Source: a virus (lineage: Duplodnaviria; Heunggongvirae; Uroviricota; Caudoviricetes). Taken from it: a stretch of DNA of 6,350 nt. The stretch is taken from IMG/VR virus record IMGVR_UViG_3300029461_000060, one strand, 5' to 3'. Shown one piece after another: positions 1 to 6,350 of this stretch; position 1 is the first letter of the stretch; every line of letters starts with the position of its first letter. The notes beneath the pieces were generated by a model. The model was not told the DNA's origin. It did no database searches and saw nothing but the letters and a program-made list of their open reading frames with translations. Position numbers and translations under genes: made by a program.

Positions 1-1644
1 GCTGCGGCTAACAGCCAGAAAGCTGCGAAGACGAGTGAAACTAACGCAAAGTCCAGCCAGACGGCAGCGAAGACCAGCGAAACGAATGCCAAAGCCAGCG
101 AAACTGCGGCAAAAAACAGTCAGGATGCAGCGGCCCAAAGCGAGAGTGCCGCAGCTGGTTCTGCAAGTGCGGCAGCTAATAGCCAAAAAGCTGCAAAAAC
201 CAGTGAAACTAACGCAAAGACGAGTGAAACAAAAGCAGCAGCCAGCGAGATAGAAGCAACGTCAGCCGCAACAAGAGCAGAGAATGCAGCCCGGATTGCA
301 GAAGATGCCGCTGATCCTGCTTCAGTCCCTCCGCTTCCTGATATCTGGCTACCCTTGAATGATTCTCTGGAAGCGATAACAGGGTATGCCCCGGGCTATA
401 AAACAATAACCATCGGCAGTGATGAAATAACAATGCCTGTTAATGGCATATGCCAATTTAGCCGCGCTTCATCAGCAACGTATATTGATAAGTCCGGGCA
501 TATTACCGTGGCAGGGAATAACGTTCCTCGTTTTGAAAAATATGGTTTGCTGATAGAGAATCAGCGAACAAACATGTTCGTAAATAGTTTTAATCCTGAT
601 GCGTGGAATAAAAGCGGTGGTATATCTGTAACATCATCAACAGATGAATTTGAGTTTAAATATGGACGTTTCACAGTAGGAAGCGACATAGCAGGAACGA
701 CAACAGGGAGAAATATATGCACAGTTGCTGGTAATAAAGGCATAGATGTGACTGGCGATGATCAGTACAGTAAAGGTCCGTATGTTACCGCGTCGTTCAG
801 GGTAAGAAGTGATCTCAATGTTCGCGCACGTATCCGTTTTGAACGGTATAACTCGGAAGGATACACTTTCCTTTGTGACGCCTATTTGTCATTACAGACT
901 CATGAACTACAAATTACGGGTGGTAATGCCCAGCTATTAACAGCAAACTTTGAAATCGACCCTGGTAGTGGATGGATATATTTTCAGGCAACACTGAAAT
1001 GTCTGCCAGAATGGGGAATGGTTGGTACGCAGCTGCAAATTGCAGCCGACAGAGCAGTGGGGGCTTTTGCAACAGGTGACTGGATAGAAGTAACCACCCC
1101 GCAATTCGAGTATGGTGCTTGTGCAACTTCCTTTATCATAACGACAACAGAGCCAGCGACTCGTGCATCAGATTTATGTAAATTTCCGCTGATGAAAAAT
1201 ATGTATACCATGCCTTTTACGTTCATGGTGGAAGTCCATAAAAACTGGTTTATTTCTCATAATGCTGCACCGCGTGTCATTGATTCAGAAAATCACCAGT
1301 CCGGAGGCCCATTTATTATGGGGTTTGGTTCTTCTGGAACTATCAGTCAGGATGGTTATTCGTATTGCGATATAGGCGGGGCTAACCGGCGTGTATATGA
1401 GTCATGCGGAGTAAGAGATCTCGTTATGGGATTCAGGGTTAAGGCTGACGGCATGACATGCTCATTTGCAAATAAGCATATAAGCACTGAAACCAAAACA
1501 GTATGGAAATATATTCGTGAAGCAGCCGTGATTCGAATCGGGGGGCAAACGACGACAGGATTACGACACCTTAATGGTCATATAAAAAACCTCCGTTTCT
1601 GGAACAGAGCATTGTCAGATACGCAGCTTAAGGAATACGTATAA
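1..1644 (+). CDS. Side tail fibre protein, 5'-partial (Stf-like shaft repeats plus a distal lectin-like receptor-binding tip)
   Basis: Frame 1 is open from nt 1 with no stop until TAA at 1642-1644, so the gene starts upstream of the window; the ORF track begins at TTG 355 only because there is no in-frame start earlier. Residues from nt 1-250 read AANSQKAAKTSETNAKSSQTAAKTSETNAKASETAAKNSQDAAAQSESAAAGSASAAANSQKAAKTSETNAK, which matches the Ala/Lys/Ser/Glu-rich 'phage tail fibre repeat' of lambda Stf-type fibres (from memory). The C-terminus ends LNGHIKNLRFWNRALSDTQLKEYV (nt 1570-1641), resembling the C-terminal signature of concanavalin A-like/LamG-type lectin domains (from memory, not searched). 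Confidence 0.8.
   Translation, partial: AAANSQKAAKTSETNAKSSQTAAKTSETNAKASETAAKNSQDAAAQSESAAAGSASAAANSQKAAKTSETNAKTSETKAAASEIEATSAATRAENAARIAEDAADPASVPPLPDIWLPLNDSLEAITGYAPGYKTITIGSDEITMPVNGICQFSRASSATYIDKSGHITVAGNNVPRFEKYGLLIENQRTNMFVNSFNPDAWNKSGGISVTSSTDEFEFKYGRFTVGSDIAGTTTGRNICTVAGNKGIDVTGDDQYSKGPYVTASFRVRSDLNVRARIRFERYNSEGYTFLCDAYLSLQTHELQITGGNAQLLTANFEIDPGSGWIYFQATLKCLPEWGMVGTQLQIAADRAVGAFATGDWIEVTTPQFEYGACATSFIITTTEPATRASDLCKFPLMKNMYTMPFTFMVEVHKNWFISHNAAPRVIDSENHQSGGPFIMGFGSSGTISQDGYSYCDIGGANRRVYESCGVRDLVMGFRVKADGMTCSFANKHISTETKTVWKYIREAAVIRIGGQTTTGLRHLNGHIKNLRFWNRALSDTQLKEYV
16..218 (+). repeat. Degenerate ~36-bp in-frame coding repeats of the fibre shaft
   Basis: cagaaagctgcgaagacgagtgaaactaacgcaaag (16-51) and caaaaagctgcaaaaaccagtgaaactaacgcaaag (183-218) are near-identical; acggcagcgaagaccagcgaaacgaatgccaaagcc (61-96) is a more diverged copy. 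All encode (Q/T)(K/A)AAKTSETNAK-type units. Confidence 0.7.
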
Positions 1645-1913
1645 TGCGGGATATAACATTACGATTCGATAACAGAGAACAGTTTAACGCAATTGTATAT
1701 GACAGTGGCCTGTTCAGTCTTGAAGAAGAAAATGGGGTTCTTGTTGATGTTATTGGCTGCATTATTGATTACGAGGAGCCAGAAAACGAAAGATGTACGG
1801 GCATTGATCGCGGTGGTTTTTTCGTAAACATGAGGATTGTTGATAGCAGTAAAAACATATCTTCTTTAATGCCTTTCATTACGACAGATCAGCATGTAAG
1901 GACATGGGCTTAA
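1644..1913 (+). CDS. Hypothetical small acidic protein (89 aa), translationally coupled to the upstream fibre gene
   Basis: ATG at 1644 overlaps the upstream TAA by 1 nt (TAATG); aagga at 1630-1634 is a plausible Shine-Dalgarno. No transmembrane segment and no motif I recognise. Its position between two fibre genes suggests a fibre-associated accessory or chaperone role, but that is inference only. Confidence 0.5.
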   Translation: MRDITLRFDNREQFNAIVYDSGLFSLEEENGVLVDVIGCIIDYEEPENERCTGIDRGGFFVNMRIVDSSKNISSLMPFITTDQHVRTWA

Positions 1914-1925
1914 TGGAGTAAGACA

Positions 1926-2966
1926 ATGGTTACAAAAACAGTAATTCCTGATGACATCAAAACGCTAAAATCGGATGTTAGTAAATTAAAAACCGATCAA
2001 GGAAACTACGCAACAAAATCTTATGTAGACAATAAAACAACATGGAATGGTTATTGCAATGTAATCTATGATCAAAAAACATTGCCAACAACTGGAACTA
2101 TATTCAGCGGTAAGCTGCATTTGTCAAATAAGACTGGTGAAACGGAAAACGCTTATAGTGACATATATACCAGAAAAAATATTGATGGTACTAAAGATAC
2201 AATGACGAGGATCGTCACACATAACGGGACAAAAGGTATCTTTTGGGACTTTAGTGATCTTTACGGAGGAACTTTAATTTTTCCAGGCAGTGATGGTTAC
2301 CTTAAGATGGGGAACTGTCTCATGTCGTATGGTGTGCGGGGAAGTAACGCGCTTATTAAGTTTGATAATACAGACTCATTGCAGATCAAATATGCTAATC
2401 ACGGGTCGACCATGACACTAAACACGCAAGGTACGGCGTATTCTGGTGTGTCGACGTTATTATGGGGAAATTCCAGTCGTCCAGTTGTTTATGAAATTAG
2501 GGATGATGGCGGGCTTTTTTTGTTTTATGCACAAAGGAACCCAGATAAAACCTATCAGCTTGAGATAAACGGGTCATGCAAGGCTACATCATTCGACCAG
2601 GTGTCGGACAGAGATCTTAAAGAAAACATTCAGGTTATTGATAATGCCACTGAGCGCATCAGATTAATGAATGGGTATACTTACCGTCTCAAGTCTAATG
2701 GTATGCCTTATGCTGGCGTTATTGCGCAAGAGGCACTTAATGCAATCCCTGAATCAGTTGGTAGCACAATAAAGTACAAGAGCGGGGACAATGGGTCTGA
2801 TGGAGAAGAGGGAGAAAGATACTATACCGTTGATTACTCAGGCGTAACGGGTTTGCTTGTTCAGGTAGCCAGAGAGTCAGACGACAGGATAACAGCACTG
2901 GAAGAAGAAAACGCAGAATTAAGACAAAGATTATCTGCAATTGAGGCGGCGCTTGCGTCTAAATAA
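1926..2966 (+). CDS. Second tail fibre/tailspike-like protein with a C-terminal intramolecular chaperone auto-processing domain (peptidase S74-type)
   Basis: Good Shine-Dalgarno GGAG at 1916-1919, 6 nt before ATG 1926. The C-terminal ~120 aa start with SDRDLKENIQVIDNATERIRLMNGYTY, a Ser-X4-Lys arrangement followed by conserved hydrophobic positions, and end in a heptad-like helix ITALEEENAELRQRLSAIEAALASK. This is the pattern of the auto-cleaving C-terminal chaperone domain described for phage K1F endosialidase and T5 L-shaped tail fibre. Confidence 0.8.
   Translation: MVTKTVIPDDIKTLKSDVSKLKTDQGNYATKSYVDNKTTWNGYCNVIYDQKTLPTTGTIFSGKLHLSNKTGETENAYSDIYTRKNIDGTKDTMTRIVTHNGTKGIFWDFSDLYGGTLIFPGSDGYLKMGNCLMSYGVRGSNALIKFDNTDSLQIKYANHGSTMTLNTQGTAYSGVSTLLWGNSSRPVVYEIRDDGGLFLFYAQRNPDKTYQLEINGSCKATSFDQVSDRDLKENIQVIDNATERIRLMNGYTYRLKSNGMPYAGVIAQEALNAIPESVGSTIKYKSGDNGSDGEEGERYYTVDYSGVTGLLVQVARESDDRITALEEENAELRQRLSAIEAALASK
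2604..2966 (+). other. Predicted intramolecular chaperone (S74-type) domain; candidate autoproteolysis site at the Ser codon 2604-2606
   Basis: tcg gac aga gat ctt aaa at 2604-2621 encodes S-D-R-D-L-K, in frame with the ATG at 1926. Ser and Lys five residues apart correspond to the catalytic dyad of S74-type domains (established for endosialidase, from memory). Confidence 0.6.
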
Positions 2967-2972
2967 TATTAA

Positions 2973-2995
2973 GGGGCCGAGCGCCCCGTTTTATT
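2973..2995 (+). terminator. Rho-independent terminator of the fibre operon
   Basis: ggggc (2973-2977) pairs with gcccc (2983-2987) around loop cgagc, followed by gttttatt. It lies 7 nt after the TAA at 2964-2966. Confidence 0.65.
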
Positions 2996-3308
2996 GGGTA
3001 GGATGAAAATGGATATAACACCTNNNNNNNNNNNNNNNNNNNNNNNNNNNNNNNNNNNNNNNNNNNNNNNNNNNNNNNNNNNCGGGAACTGGGCTTACGG
3101 AGCGATAGCCGGTTGTACGTTCTTCATTGCGCGTGAACACACCCAGGCAGAATATCGCTGGATTGAAATGTTCGGGCATGGCAAGCGTATGAATATGCCG
3201 TGGTGGGGCGGTTTTGATCCACGCGCGTGGGATGTGGCAAGCATGATGGATTTTGCTGTGCCGGTGGTGGCGTGTCTGCTGGTCTGGCGGTTAGTTAATC
3301 GTGGGTGA
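2994..3308 (+). CDS. Hypothetical small membrane protein, interrupted by the N-run (start and frame continuity uncertain)
   Basis: After the gap, 3083-3305 reads GNWAYGAIAGCTFFIAREHTQAEYRWIEMFGHGKRMNMPWWGGFDPRAWDVASMMDFAVPVVACLLVWRLVNRG with TGA at 3306-3308. There are two hydrophobic stretches (AYGAIAGCTFFIA and FAVPVVACLLVWRLV). Codon choice is E. coli-like (CTG, GTG, GCG, CGT, CCG), unlike the flanking AT-rich DNA. The part 5' of the gap (MGRMKMDITP) cannot be trusted to be in the same frame. Confidence 0.4.
   Translation: MGRMKMDITPXXXXXXXXXXXXXXXXXXXXGNWAYGAIAGCTFFIAREHTQAEYRWIEMFGHGKRMNMPWWGGFDPRAWDVASMMDFAVPVVACLLVWRLVNRG
3024..3082. other. Assembly gap or masked stretch (59 N)
   Basis: Uninterrupted run of n characters; true length and sequence are unknown. 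Confidence 0.99.
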
Positions 3309-3754
3309 AAAAGCATGTTTAGTGTACTTTCCCGAAACTGATAGTAAGTGGCGAGATTAATTACCTGCTTCAGACTGAATGATTTTTTGCAAGCGCCACA
3401 GAAGTAATAGGGGTGAGTGAAAAAATATTATATATTAATGAATTGCGTTATTGCATCATCAGCTCAAAATGATGAATAACTAGAATTCCTGTCATAGCAT
3501 TAATGGCTGAATTGGTGGGATGATATATCAGATAGAGTATCAATAAAAGCTGGAATGCATGTGGATTCAAATGGTTTTTGGCTAGATGATACTTATATCA
3601 TATATTATATGAAGTATTTTAATGTTGCTCTGGAGGGAAATAGTGAGAGATGCACGGCGAAGCACGTCTTGAACTAAATATACACAAGTAAATCATGCTT
3701 TCGCCGCTGTATTAGAGCTTTGTTTCAGATTTGTTAATCGCCAGGTATTACCCC

Positions 3755-3776
3755 ACCAAAAAAATGATTTTTTGGT
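3755..3776 (-). terminator. AT-rich palindrome just downstream of the KAP NTPase stop (possible weak terminator)
   Basis: accaaaaaa (3755-3763) and ttttttggt (3768-3776) are exact reverse complements around loop atga. It lies 14-35 nt beyond the minus-strand stop (TGA, complement of 3790-3792). The stem has only 3 G-C pairs and there is no separate U-tract, so it is weak. Confidence 0.3.
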
Positions 3777-3789
3777 AAAGTGGATGTTC

Positions 3790-5532
3790 TCATAATTTGT
3801 TAATGGCAATTTTAACTGTTCTGTTTAGATCGTATATGGCTCCAAATTTAAAGCTTTCTTTATAGGAAAGGCAAAAAATATCAAGTTTTTGACTAAGATA
3901 AATAAGTTTGTTTTTTTCATTAGTGGCGAATTGTTTTATGTTGCTGATTTGATAGTTGCTACGCAAGAAAGAACTAAATTGCTCAATATCATTAACTGCC
4001 CAATTCTTTAAAACGCATTTTGTTACAAATGATACACCAAGTACTTCAAGCGGCTTATAATTTCCGAATGGATCTAAAGTGGTTAATTGGTTAGCATTGA
4101 ATGATGCCCAGCCATTCAATTCTAATTGCAACTTAATAGTGTTGAGTTCACGCATTTTGATCGTGCTTTCATAACGGTAAAATGAAATTGAGTACAGCAA
4201 TTTGCTATCTTCAAAACCACTATTTAAGCTATTTTTTCTATCAAGTGAGTATAGCTCAAAGCATTCTGCAACTTCATTGTCAGTGAATCCGTTCAGAATC
4301 GAAGTGACAAACTTTAGAGTTATAATTGGTGATTTTGGTAGGTATTTATGTGTGGTTAAATACTCATAATTCTGAAACGCTTTTATCCATTCATAGAAAT
4401 TACAGTCAATCTTACGGCAAATTAAGTCGACAAGTGTATTTGAAAGTTCCTTTTCATTTATCTCATGTAATTCTGGACGTGCTGATATTGCAATTTCTCT
4501 CATAGTAAGCCGTTTTGCTTCATAAAACAAAACATCCAATATGTCATTTAATGAAGCTTGTCCGCTATAATACCTTTTAATCTCAGGTTTTATTTTGTAA
4601 TTATTCAATGCTAACCATAGCACTCTCTCACTATCACTTGATTTCTCGGTGTTTAATAAAAAAGTTGGATCTTTGTCCTTGAGAAGATCCTCAAGAGAGT
4701 GATTATGCAAAAATAATAAAATGAAGAAAGAGCATATTGAGTTTAAAAGAATTGTTGATGGTATTCGCCAAGAAAGATGAGGATATGATTTAACGTATTC
4801 ATATAATGGCGTAACTGTGTCCAAAATACGCATCAAAATACGGATGTTAACTATGTTGTTATTTTTTACTATATCCTCAAAGAGAATTTTATCTTCCTGT
4901 GGGAATTGGGAAAGCTTTCCATTTATTATATCTATATCCAATATTTCCTCTGGATGCGGATTATAATGAAGTGTTTCTGCAATGAGTTTTTCCTTGTGTT
5001 CTATTTTTAAACCAGACTCAGTTGATGTATTGGTAATAATAATAAAGTCTAAATTTGAGTTCATCTCGGACATATAAAGAGAATGGCAATATGTCAAAAT
5101 TTCACTAACTAATGATTTTTCGGATATTCTCTCTATATCATCCAATATAAAAATACCATCCAGTTTTGATAAAATGTTTTCTCTAACACTTGCACCAATA
5201 GAATTAAACATGCTGTTAATAATATTGGCACTTGCAGGTGAGCCGCTGGCAATGCTACCTATCCCTGATAGACTTTCGAGCCCGGATTTAAATGTTTGTA
5301 TATCTTGCAGGTAGTAACAATCTATAATTTTAGCTTTGAAATCTGATAAGGATTTAATACCTAGTAAAGAAATATAATAGAAAATGTTTTTATCATAGTA
5401 CTTGGGGAATTTTTTTCTGATAAAGTGAGTCTTTCCTGTGCCCCAGCTCCCATCAAGCAAAATCAGACCATCTCTTTTTTGTGAAAGTAGATGTATTATT
5501 TTTATAATAAGATTGCTGTTAGAGTATTTCAT
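3790..5532 (-). CDS. KAP-family P-loop NTPase (PifA-like), candidate phage-exclusion/abortive-infection protein
   Basis: Minus-strand ORF. The ORF track starts at TTG (5533-5535), but the adjacent ATG (complement of 5530-5532) is the more likely start. Walker A GSWGTGKT is at 5428-5451 (reverse complement gggagctggggcacaggaaagact, checked by hand). Walker B-like FILDDIER is at 5128-5151. The GxWGxGKT P-loop plus hhhDDxxR Walker B is the KAP NTPase signature (from memory). The gene is about 30% GC by hand count, well below its neighbours. Confidence 0.75.
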   Translation of the reverse strand: MKYSNSNLIIKIIHLLSQKRDGLILLDGSWGTGKTHFIRKKFPKYYDKNIFYYISLLGIKSLSDFKAKIIDCYYLQDIQTFKSGLESLSGIGSIASGSPASANIINSMFNSIGASVRENILSKLDGIFILDDIERISEKSLVSEILTYCHSLYMSEMNSNLDFIIITNTSTESGLKIEHKEKLIAETLHYNPHPEEILDIDIINGKLSQFPQEDKILFEDIVKNNNIVNIRILMRILDTVTPLYEYVKSYPHLSWRIPSTILLNSICSFFILLFLHNHSLEDLLKDKDPTFLLNTEKSSDSERVLWLALNNYKIKPEIKRYYSGQASLNDILDVLFYEAKRLTMREIAISARPELHEINEKELSNTLVDLICRKIDCNFYEWIKAFQNYEYLTTHKYLPKSPIITLKFVTSILNGFTDNEVAECFELYSLDRKNSLNSGFEDSKLLYSISFYRYESTIKMRELNTIKLQLELNGWASFNANQLTTLDPFGNYKPLEVLGVSFVTKCVLKNWAVNDIEQFSSFLRSNYQISNIKQFATNEKNKLIYLSQKLDIFCLSYKESFKFGAIYDLNRTVKIAINKL

Positions 5533-5589
5533 CAAGTTTTCTGGCTCGCTGTTAAAAATAAAACAGTATATGAAAATAATTTTCCTGTA

Positions 5590-5618
5590 ATCTTATAAAA
5601 AATGATAATCCATCTCAA
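5590..5618 (-). promoter_or_regulatory. Putative sigma70-like promoter for the KAP NTPase gene
   Basis: On the minus strand, TTGAGA (complement of 5613-5618), a 17-nt spacer, then TAAGAT (complement of 5590-5595), about 60 nt upstream of the ATG. Found by eye in very AT-rich DNA, where chance matches are common. Confidence 0.2.
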
Positions 5619-6141
5619 ACAGCAGACACAAGGCTCCCTACTTGATTTTTAATCATCCGTACAGTGCGAGACACATCGTGCCAGATAAACTTACTTGTCG
5701 GTATTGTATCATCGGCAACTATCACCTCAGCCTCTTTTCTCCATCATCTGACCTCATACCCTAGTGAGCTTTATATGCCGACAGTGCTAGTAGTCGCTAG
5801 TCGTGAGAATTAACTAGATCATTGTCAGTTGCTGGCGTCACTATCAGGAAACCTTCCGCTTATCTTTCTTTAGGTTCGGATGGTGTCCATCTGTATTAAT
5901 TTGTGGTTACCATTAATTCGATGAATAAATAGTGTTATTTTTTGTCTCCTTCCTTTTCCGTTTGTACCAACAATCAGCGATATAAAGTCACAATTATCAA
6001 CTAAAACAGCCTGGTTAGACGATGTACTTCATTGAAGCGATGACAATGTTAGTCAATGTCAAACAGAGATAGTGCAATCACTACTTTTTTAGTGTTACCA
6101 TGATTTTACTGGGTGAAAAACTTGCTGTGTCGATTTTTCAT

Positions 6142-6164
6142 TTGTGTACCAAATTGTGTACCAA
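6142..6164 (+). repeat. Tandem direct repeat TTGTGTACCAA x2 (1-nt spacer) upstream of thrS
   Basis: Copies at 6142-6152 and 6154-6164; a related tttgtaccaa lies at 5961-5970. Each unit contains the GTAC palindrome. Confidence 0.6.
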
Positions 6165-6228
6165 TTTAGCGACTGTTGGCTAGATGGATGCGCAATGAAT
6201 TGAAAACAAACAAATTTTCTCTTTGTAT

Positions 6229-6270
6229 GTGATCTTTCGTGTGGGTCACCACTGCAAATAAGGATATAAA
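6229..6270 (+). promoter_or_regulatory. thrS: thrS translational operator: anticodon-like stem-loop plus Shine-Dalgarno
   Basis: GUGAUC (6229-6234) pairs with GGUCAC (6244-6249), with one G-U wobble, around a loop that exposes CGU (6238-6240) preceded by U, i.e. a tRNA-Thr(CGU) anticodon-loop mimic. aagga at 6260-6264 is the Shine-Dalgarno, 6 nt before ATG 6271. This is consistent with the known autoregulation of thrS, where the synthetase binds an anticodon-arm mimic in its own leader. Confidence 0.6.
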
Positions 6271-6350
6271 ATGCCTGTTATAACTCTTCCTGATGGCAGC
6301 CAACGCCATTACGATCACGCTGTAAGCCCCATGGATGTTGCGCTGGACAT
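6271..6350 (+). CDS. thrS: Threonine--tRNA ligase, 5' end only (3'-partial at window edge)
   Basis: Translation MPVITLPDGSQRHYDHAVSPMDVALD matches the enterobacterial ThrRS N-terminus as I recall it; good Shine-Dalgarno immediately upstream. Confidence 0.9.
   Translation, partial: MPVITLPDGSQRHYDHAVSPMDVALD

Follow-up and report, generated by a model that had tools for sequence, protein, structure and literature searches.

The stretch of DNA analysed here, called the window in the following, comprises 6,350 nucleotides (nt) of the Caudoviricetes record IMGVR_UViG_3300029461_000060 and runs from the tail-fibre genes of a lambdoid prophage into the chromosomal gene thrS of Escherichia coli. 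The last intact prophage gene before the right attachment site attR, at positions 3790-5532 on the minus strand, codes for a P-loop NTPase of the KAP type and had been proposed as a phage-defence gene in an earlier note made from the letters alone. The gene is accessory cargo (a "moron") of this thrS-integrating prophage, and it is flanked by the remains of a gene for an SOS-response-associated peptidase (SRAP) and of umuC, between which such NTPase genes lie intact in other enterobacteria. Protection against phages or other mobile elements is its candidate role.

The KAP gene and its product

The gene, the parts of its product and a promoter-like site are the following, with protein residues counted from the ATG at 5532:

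3790-5532, minus strand: KAP gene, 580 amino acids (aa) plus stop codon
5428-5451, minus strand: Walker A motif GSWGTGKT, residues 28-35
5128-5151, minus strand: Walker B motif FILDDIER, residues 128-135
4783-5532, minus strand: N-terminal AAA+/STAND-like NTPase core with helical lid, as predicted, residues 1-250
3793-4782, minus strand: predicted all-alpha, solenoid-like C-terminal domain with no assigned function, residues 251-580
5590-5618, minus strand: promoter-like site TTGAGA-17 nt-TAAGAT from a consensus scan, about 58 nt upstream of the ATG and overlapping the end of the SRAP remnant

The program-made list of open reading frames (ORFs) gives this one as 3790-5535 with a TTG start, whereas the ATG at 5532 agrees with the RefSeq protein WP_000877736.1 ("P-loop NTPase fold protein", E. 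coli strain 2452) and with the N-termini of all homologues. The frame goes far beyond chance, as it runs for 580 codons at 31% G+C, has full-length homologues down to 30% identity and shows ratios of nonsynonymous to synonymous substitution rates (dN/dS) of 0.08-0.2. The earlier note had described it correctly as a minus-strand ORF of about 580 aa with both Walker motifs, which is intact, and also its low G+C content was seen rightly (31.6%, with about 44% in the fibre genes). As fractions, the G+C content is 0.316 for the gene versus 0.44 for positions 1-3300, and it stays at 0.30-0.34 in each 300-nt segment from 3600 to 5550.

By score and motifs, the product can be assigned to the KAP family of Pfam. 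The KAP_NTPase profile (PF07693) gives 29.0 bits with a gathering cut-off of 20 (E 8e-7) and aligns residues 7-169 with profile positions 6-192 of 293, and the call of a KAP-family P-loop NTPase made in the earlier note thus lies above Pfam's own cut-off in a profile hidden Markov model search. A PF07693 match is also precomputed for 27 of 38 homologue clusters. The motifs that reportedly define the family according to Aravind et al. in 2004, GxWGxGK[ST] with a conserved Trp and hhhhDD[LI][DE]R, are present as GSWGTGKT and FILDDIER, both on invariant columns. In a 27-member alignment, G28, W30, G31, G33, K34 and T35 of Walker A are invariant, the Trp being typical of KAP proteins, as are D131, D132, E134 and R135 of Walker B, which lies on strand E126-131 of the structure model. 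Beyond the Walker motifs, S55, G58, E181, K182, N229, R231 and W382 are invariant, and N168 at the end of strand 4, in a sensor-1-like position, is nearly so.

Other libraries add a more distant relationship. PHROGs places the protein in family 4740, which has no assigned function (E 5e-18), NCBIfam gives nothing useful, there is no NACHT or NB-ARC match above the Pfam cut-offs, and a profile search of the sequences in the PDB gives nothing below E 0.04. In PADLOC-DB, the only matches up to E 1 are to the candidate system PDC-S49 and, weakly, to PDC-S20. The three PDC-S49 profiles are PDLC05031 (E 6.9e-16, the best), PDLC05029 (3.5e-13) and PDLC05030 (9.4e-7), and the protein covers positions 27-258 of 624 (37%) with residues 24-249, which is the NTPase half only. 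Two homologues match the PDC-S49 profiles from end to end, namely P0077 (residues 23-598 on 27-619) and P0056 (22-571 on 25-606). The latter is a distant homologue that aligns with the KAP protein over its whole length as well (5-572), so that the KAP protein appears as a divergent sister branch of the PDC-S49 superfamily. Literature text searches for "PDC-S49" and WP_000877736 returned no paper naming either.

Transcription signals are less clear. The 82-bp spacer upstream of the KAP gene contains the element TATAAGAT with a TTGA-type -35, which is conserved in the window and in the fetched loci L004, L099 and L125, but a promoter at 5590-5618 can only be inferred, and promoter and terminator scans gave no more sites than were found in shuffled sequence. 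A CTGT..ACAG element 20-40 nt upstream of the ATG was considered as a LexA box and rejected, as its CTG-CAG spacing is 12 nt and not 10. A scan of the whole window with Rfam (E up to 1) revealed no RNA family.

Structure model

An AlphaFold2 model built on the family alignment has a mean predicted local distance difference test score (pLDDT) of 84.5. It shows an NTPase of AAA+/STAND-like fold that has no membrane helices and, confidently predicted, an alpha-solenoid of 330 aa behind it, and thereby contains the C-terminal alpha-helical (superhelical) extension that is characteristic of KAP proteins. Structurally, it is closest to initiator-type AAA+ proteins that bind DNA (ORC/Cdc6, TnsC and MuB), which align over about 200-260 residues, and ORC/Cdc6-type AAA+ proteins outscore STAND proteins in this comparison; a fold search of BFVD gave generic AAA+ matches only, with TM-scores below 0.3. 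No enzymatic effector fold was found in the C-terminal domain by fold, Pfam and PDB-sequence searches, which bears out at the fold level what the earlier note had stated from motifs, the lack of a nuclease, TIR or other effector.

In many, though not all, KAP proteins the NTPase domain is interrupted by two or four membrane helices. In the protein studied here, the spacer between Walker A and Walker B forms a conserved Gly/Ser/Ala-rich loop of low pLDDT (residues 77-109), and this loop occupies the position of the membrane helices of Tmn as that protein has been described (10.1101/2022.08.21.504612). In Kyte-Doolittle plots with 19-residue windows, no segment of the spacer reaches the hydrophobicity of a membrane helix. 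All top windows (peak 2.09) begin between residues 256 and 260, outside the core; they form a helix of the C-terminal domain, which is not hydrophobic in distant homologues.

Homologues and selection

A word-indexed search found the 38 homologue clusters mentioned, nearly all of about 580 aa and, where the source is named, mostly from Enterobacteriaceae. In an exhaustive search of 1.84 billion representatives there were 595 matches at E<=1e-3, 88 at <=1e-10 and 22 at <=1e-30, and many of the 595 have 550-620 aa and can be aligned from end to end. Pairwise dN/dS is 0.08-0.2 in all comparisons (0.08-0.18 for the NTPase half, 0.12-0.21 for the C-terminal half), and both halves of the protein are under purifying selection.

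Some lineages may have lost the gene, as is suggested by two cases of apparent damage: a provirus copy of the E. coli allele in IMG/VR (L100 1-1663) is probably frameshifted, as tblastn matches it in two pieces with an overlap near locus position 590, and cluster P0016, with 39 member sequences, is truncated to 404 aa.

The KAP gene as the surviving part of an SRAP-KAP-umuDC module

The surroundings of the gene contain the following features:

355-3308, plus strand: lambdoid side-tail-fibre module with a 429-aa fibre part, an 89-aa ORF, a 346-aa fibre and a 104-aa ORF, marking the phage side of the cargo slot
3695-3745, plus strand: 3' stub of umuC, the last 17 codons, convergent on KAP and 41 bp from the KAP stop codon (39 bp in L004)
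5615-5964, minus strand: decayed SRAP gene (PF02586), residues ~88-206 only, frameshifted near 5735 and lacking the N-terminal part
6053-6240, plus strand: attR, identified by comparison with K-12, with a diverged phage-borne copy of the thrS promoter/leader at ~6053-6207, then the attachment (att) core at ~6208-6240
6271-6350, plus strand: 5' end of the chromosomal thrS gene by the annotation of strain 2452, matched in all 5426 complete E. coli genomes

The earlier note had taken the KAP gene to be solitary, in an AT-rich island with flanks free of long ORFs. The flanks of 481 bp (3309-3789) and 738 bp (5533-6270) indeed have no ORF of more than 50 aa, but they are not empty, as they hold the SRAP remnant, the umuC stub and attR. 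The SRAP remnant, which is spread over two frames, is recovered by tblastn when the SRAP proteins of L004 (E 4e-17) and L011 (1e-15) are used as queries. The umuC stub is weak when taken alone (tblastn E 0.32), but it lies inside a nucleotide homology to L004 of 74% that spans 3695-5692.

What the complete arrangement looks like can be seen in Citrobacter amalonaticus, the KAP protein of which is 70% identical, and in a second lineage with 39% identity. In both, a lambdoid prophage ends with an intact SRAP gene, the KAP gene 65-80 bp downstream of it, and umuC-umuD in convergent orientation to KAP, followed by dinI. A tblastn search over all fetched loci found the intact frame SRAP -> KAP <- umuC-umuD in L004-6, L011-12, L099 and L103, and partial decay in L101-102 (SRAP) and in L098 (a umuC fragment), and a plasmid of Enterobacter cancerogenus carries the same frame. 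Prophages with the intact frame belong to Citrobacter and Enterobacter. The remnants therefore mark the E. coli copy as a fragment ['umuC-KAP-'SRAP] in which only KAP survived, and the gene is not solitary but the surviving piece of a module, the remnants of which fill the flanks.

Within this frame the KAP gene is the variable part. In the same pairs of loci, SRAP is 88-96% and UmuC 84-96% identical, but KAP only 35-80%. Between L004 and L011, the nucleotide homology ends 24 nt before the SRAP stop codon and sets in again 30 nt within the 3' end of umuC; none is detectable between these two points. In every locus the KAP gene has 31-34% G+C within a frame of 51-54%, and the AT-richness is therefore not that of an island but belongs to the KAP gene itself. 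With saturated dS and low dN/dS, this looks like old alleles that have been recombined into a fixed slot, and not like fast evolution in place. This exchange slot between SRAP and umuDC is new here, as are the pseudogene remnants that explain the seemingly empty flanks. Canonical LexA boxes are found only before umuD and dinI in the other loci, and there are none before SRAP-KAP or in the window.

Two further observations concern the surroundings of the module. The 386 bp to the left of the umuC stub (3309-3694) occur only in the same 71 E. coli genomes that have the KAP gene, with no match elsewhere in the databases searched. Genes for DUF3800 proteins are found near the module in Citrobacter (L004 7836-8882, minus strand) and on the Enterobacter plasmid (L125 14076-15296, minus strand), where the DUF3800 copy has a weak match to PDC-S51 and HNH, DUF4928 and dcm genes are nearby.

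Attachment site and distribution in E. coli

The KAP gene is present in 71 of 5426 complete E. coli genomes, always contiguous with thrS, and 65 of the copies are at least 99% identical, whereas in genomes without it the match to the window begins at 6136. In strain 2452, a degraded lambdoid prophage of 18.5 kb lies between espL1 and thrS, in the order integrase...Q...partial lysozyme...fibres...KAP. A K-12 segment (2919-3106), from 216 to 29 nt upstream of the thrS ATG, is duplicated at both ends of this prophage. The boundary comparison between K-12 and strain 2452 thus bears out that the gene lies inside the prophage, between the tail fibres and the attachment site, as had been noticed earlier. 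The mismatches to K-12 at the right end are all within 6037-6207, with none from 6208 on, which places the att core at about 6208-6240, 31-63 nt before the thrS ATG, and means that the phage arm has its own copy of the thrS leader. This copy (6053-6240; also L001 4161-4348) is 78-87% identical to the native leader in two aligned stretches.

Since the att site is in the thrS leader, thrS of a lysogen would be read from upstream DNA that the phage has supplied. The gene thrS is autoregulated through its leader, and this autoregulation might be altered in lysogens by the phage copy. Integration into the thrS leader with a phage-supplied leader copy is new here.

An exact repeat of 28 bp, ATTTGTGTACCAAATTGTGTACCAATTT, consisting of two tandem TTGTGTACCAA units, is located at 6140-6167, within the phage-borne copy of the thrS leader, and again at L001 4477-4504, 25 bp upstream of the integrase gene. 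It had been considered as the att core, which was dropped as the K-12 comparison puts the crossover at about 6208-6240, and these repeats may be arm-type binding sites of the integrase.

The cargo slot of related phages

The fibre module (positions 1-3312 of the window) is 94-97% identical at the nucleotide level to that of the Escherichia phages PhiR11_1, PhiR47_1 and PhiR55_1, and in these and related phages the DNA beyond the same small ORF is variable. The site is a cargo slot equivalent to the b region of lambda. PhiR11_1 has IS2 there, together with a 456-aa FRG protein (L002 13208-14578, minus strand), for which PADLOC gives the candidate PDC-S15 at E 7e-99, and a protein of 253 aa that matches HEPN_RiboL-PSP below the threshold. 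The slot is filled with PinR and YnaE in PhiR63_1 and Tritos, plus DinI in PhiR63_1, and with a methyltransferase, a hydrolase and OmpT in PhiR49_1; PhiR47_1 runs directly into dinI and int. A KAP protein of this kind is encoded on 11 provirus contigs of IMG/VR, each time at the edge of the contig.

More distant relatives are found in various places. In Cronobacter sakazakii (60% identity), the gene is a solitary islet among housekeeping genes. One relative of 30% identity has colicin and immunity genes as direct neighbours and, nearby, an insertion sequence and genes for AlpA, antirestriction and RadC, and another of 30% adjoins AcaB and TraU with integrases near, and thus belongs to an element similar to integrative and conjugative elements (ICEs) or to IncC plasmids. 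The full-length relatives of 22-25% identity, among the matches listed, are in Mu-like prophages, in an island with an integrase and Toprim, or in islets between housekeeping genes, one of them beside hipA. Mobile contexts dominate among the relatives without being universal, and the expectation that homologues would be mainly on mobile elements has come true with prophages, the ICE-like element, genomic islands and a plasmid.

In Rheinheimera soli (L017 13104-14826, plus strand), a full-length relative of 23% identity has umuD-umuC about 1.5 kb downstream, which could be coincidence or reflect a wider link of this NTPase family to umuDC cargo.

Comparison with known defence proteins

The closest parallel in architecture is a class of proteins from Firmicutes. 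EF_KAP of Enterococcus faecalis and three proteins from gut metagenomes consist of a KAP NTPase and an unassigned region of about 320 aa, and they have been validated by experiment as a single-gene phage defence that protects Enterococcus and for which Walker B and the unassigned region are both required (PMC13552941, PMC12632615). Like these, the protein described here is encoded by a single gene on mobile DNA and has a KAP NTPase followed by some 320-330 residues without recognisable domain or structural relative; unlike it, EF_KAP contains membrane helices, of which one lies within the NTPase domain, and the hosts are Firmicutes and not Enterobacteriaceae. It thus matches the class "KAP NTPase plus region of unknown function" in its architecture, a likeness drawn from the published description and not from sequence. 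EF_KAP is reported not to act by abortive infection, and it is the only protein of the class that has been tested for that (PMC13552941). The abortive-infection mechanism considered in the earlier note was pure inference and finds no backing here.

The systems named PDC are 145 candidates that were collected by "guilt-by-embedding" from BREX, DISARM or type I restriction-modification loci (10.1101/2024.01.29.577857). PDC-S49 is the best match in the defence libraries (E 7e-16) and has a similar length (619-629 profile positions, 580 aa here), but only the NTPase half of the protein matches it, and the gene is located in a prophage between SRAP and umuC remnants. No BREX, DISARM or type I restriction-modification neighbours were found at the close loci.

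The likeness to PifA of the F plasmid, on which the earlier note had relied, is limited to the level of the Pfam family. An alignment of the family profile with PifA by hhalign comprises only 29 columns around Walker A at a probability of 60%, and a tblastn search of PLSDB (72,556 plasmids) gave two plasmids, neither of them F; these two results are the reason for that limit. PifA (741 aa) scores 148 bits over the whole KAP profile, the protein studied here 29 bits over two thirds of it. Exclusion of T7 by PifA is triggered by gp1.2 or gp10. Both proteins have the PF07693 domain and a GxWGxGK[ST] P-loop with Trp (GAWGSGKT in PifA), and both are single large proteins of mobile elements, but F has pifC directly upstream of pifA, where the prophage has the SRAP pseudogene.

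Tmn is a membrane protein with a KAP-type NTPase that acts as a single-gene defence and synergises with Gabija (10.1101/2022.08.21.504612), and it has been reported, in work cited in PMC13552941, to hydrolyse ATP and to cause plasmolysis. The KAP-type NTPase and the alpha-helical C-terminal part are shared with Tmn, but Tmn carries two membrane helices as an insertion into this domain. No Tmn or QatA model, both of which are presumably present in PADLOC-DB, is among the matches up to E 1, and there are no qatBCD partners, the neighbours being pseudogene remnants. By these comparisons, the protein is not a specific relative of PifA, Tmn or QatA. It also differs from the STAND/NLR-like ATPases of the Avs type in that it has no N-terminal effector domain, as Walker A starts already at residue 28, and of their tripartite layout (effector, NTPase, sensor repeats) it fits two of three parts.

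Possible function and alternatives

A role in protection against phages or other mobile elements, exerted by a single-gene NTP switch, is what we would infer for the KAP gene, with a confidence that is slightly better than even. The lysogen would be protected against other phages by the soluble KAP protein as a single-gene system. The C-terminal solenoid would sense a phage protein or a host complex that is altered by infection, and this recognition would switch the NTPase, for which K34 of Walker A and D131/D132 of Walker B would be required. The nucleotide-driven form, which is probably oligomeric as in AAA+/STAND proteins, would then block infection directly, either by sequestering or remodelling its target or by NTP consumption; a direct block is proposed because there is no separate enzymatic effector domain. 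Any particular step downstream in this mechanism deserves much less confidence than the protective role as such. Support for protection comes from the FRG protein (PDC-S15) and the HEPN-like cargo in the same slot, from the relatives on mobile elements, and from the KAP gene that has stayed intact while SRAP and umuDC decayed. The family assignment and fold, the matches to PDC-S49, the low dN/dS, the high divergence of KAP between well conserved neighbours, and the EF_KAP class and Tmn as precedents speak for it as well.

Several points weigh against protection. The KAP_NTPase match has a low score and covers the profile only in part (29 bits, 6-192 of 293 positions), and none of the PADLOC models of validated systems is matched, while PDC-S49, the closest library match, is itself only a candidate (10.1101/2024.01.29.577857). 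The membrane helices of Tmn and EF_KAP are lacking. A tblastn search of 50,697 deposited phage genomes gave no match to the KAP protein, and some of the relatives are islets among housekeeping genes (Cronobacter, Pseudoalteromonas and Colwellia). Purifying selection together with saturated dS points to the swapping of old alleles and not to demonstrable positive selection, and the recurrent neighbours SRAP, umuDC and dinI are genes for DNA damage and not for defence.

From these neighbours it could be argued that the NTPase is an accessory of a prophage DNA-damage module, with SRAP as an abasic-site crosslinking peptidase, UmuD'2C as translesion polymerase, and DinI. It could for example be an ORC/TnsC-like ATPase that binds DNA, or that loads or regulates factors in the SOS response or in prophage induction, which would agree with ORC/Cdc6, TnsC and MuB as best structural matches. 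The order SRAP -> KAP <- umuC-umuD (plus dinI) recurs with KAP alleles that are 100, 72, 70, 58 and 39% identical, also on the Enterobacter plasmid, and even the Rheinheimera relative of 23% identity has umuDC 1.5 kb away. In the window, however, KAP is intact beside an SRAP that is a frameshifted stub and a umuDC that is down to 17 codons, and it stands alone in Cronobacter, the ICE-like element, the colicin island and Mu-like prophages. KAP is preceded by a conserved promoter-like element of its own, there is no LexA box in front of SRAP-KAP, and a cassette of 31-34% G+C that is exchanged within a frame of 51-54% is not expected of a co-adapted partner. It is thus distinctly unlikely that KAP works for this module.

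The protein may also serve the prophage itself, by addiction or stabilisation, counter-defence or competition between elements, with phage exclusion as a side effect, which is unlikely as well. Phage restriction is probably not the primary function of PifA either, in the opinion of authors who are quoted in PMC13552941, and KAP travels with many kinds of mobile elements; but there is no conserved antitoxin-like partner ORF adjoining the gene, the flanks being pseudogene remnants, and no toxin-like fold. That KAP persists in the degraded 18.5-kb prophage remnant of strain 2452 could speak for such a self-serving function, but persistence in a dead prophage fits a benefit for the host at least equally well. 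Finally, the gene could be neutral, AT-rich cargo acquired horizontally that is probably silenced in E. coli and has no current function there. Its G+C content is 31.6%, and in E. coli H-NS typically binds DNA of such AT-richness; judged by its sequence, the ribosome-binding site is weak, only 71 of the 5426 genomes have the gene, and there are at least one frameshifted copy (L100) and the truncated 404-aa cluster (P0016). With dN/dS of 0.08-0.2 in every comparison, constraint on both domains, and an intact ORF that 65 genomes, obtained from humans, gulls, dogs and river water, share at 99% identity or more while its neighbours decayed, neutrality is nevertheless very unlikely.

If the gene is protective, an enterobacterial branch without membrane helices joins the newly recognised single-gene defences with KAP NTPases, the PDC-S49 superfamily with its approximately 600 representative clusters gets an experimental footing, and the SRAP/umuDC end of lambdoid prophages is marked as a place for further cargo. 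The natural allelic series, 35-80% identical within one conserved frame, could serve to map specificity to the C-terminal solenoid. If it is not protective, KAP is an ordinary hypothetical moron. Anti-phage genes of this kind have been described already, and the idea of defence, though reasonable, would not surprise a specialist. A more far-reaching idea, which we regard as rather improbable, is that SRAP -> [NTPase] <- umuC in enterobacterial lambdoid prophages is a dedicated slot for swapping old, divergent AT-rich alleles of a soluble KAP-type NTPase free of membrane helices that would represent an effectorless single-protein immunity of a new mechanistic type, in which NTPase and solenoid alone sense and neutralise the invader; or else that there is a functional link to SRAP/UmuDC, in which the NTPase would couple the detection of phages or DNA damage to SOS-tolerance genes.

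Further observations on the fibre module

The 104-aa ORF at the end of the fibre module (2994-3308) contains 59 N, that is masked bases, at 3024-3082. The 346-aa fibre (1926-2966, plus strand) has a Peptidase_S74 domain, an endosialidase intramolecular chaperone, at residues 227-278, and its gene shares 94% DNA identity with a fibre gene of JenP1, an unrelated phage, which points to an exchange of fibre modules.

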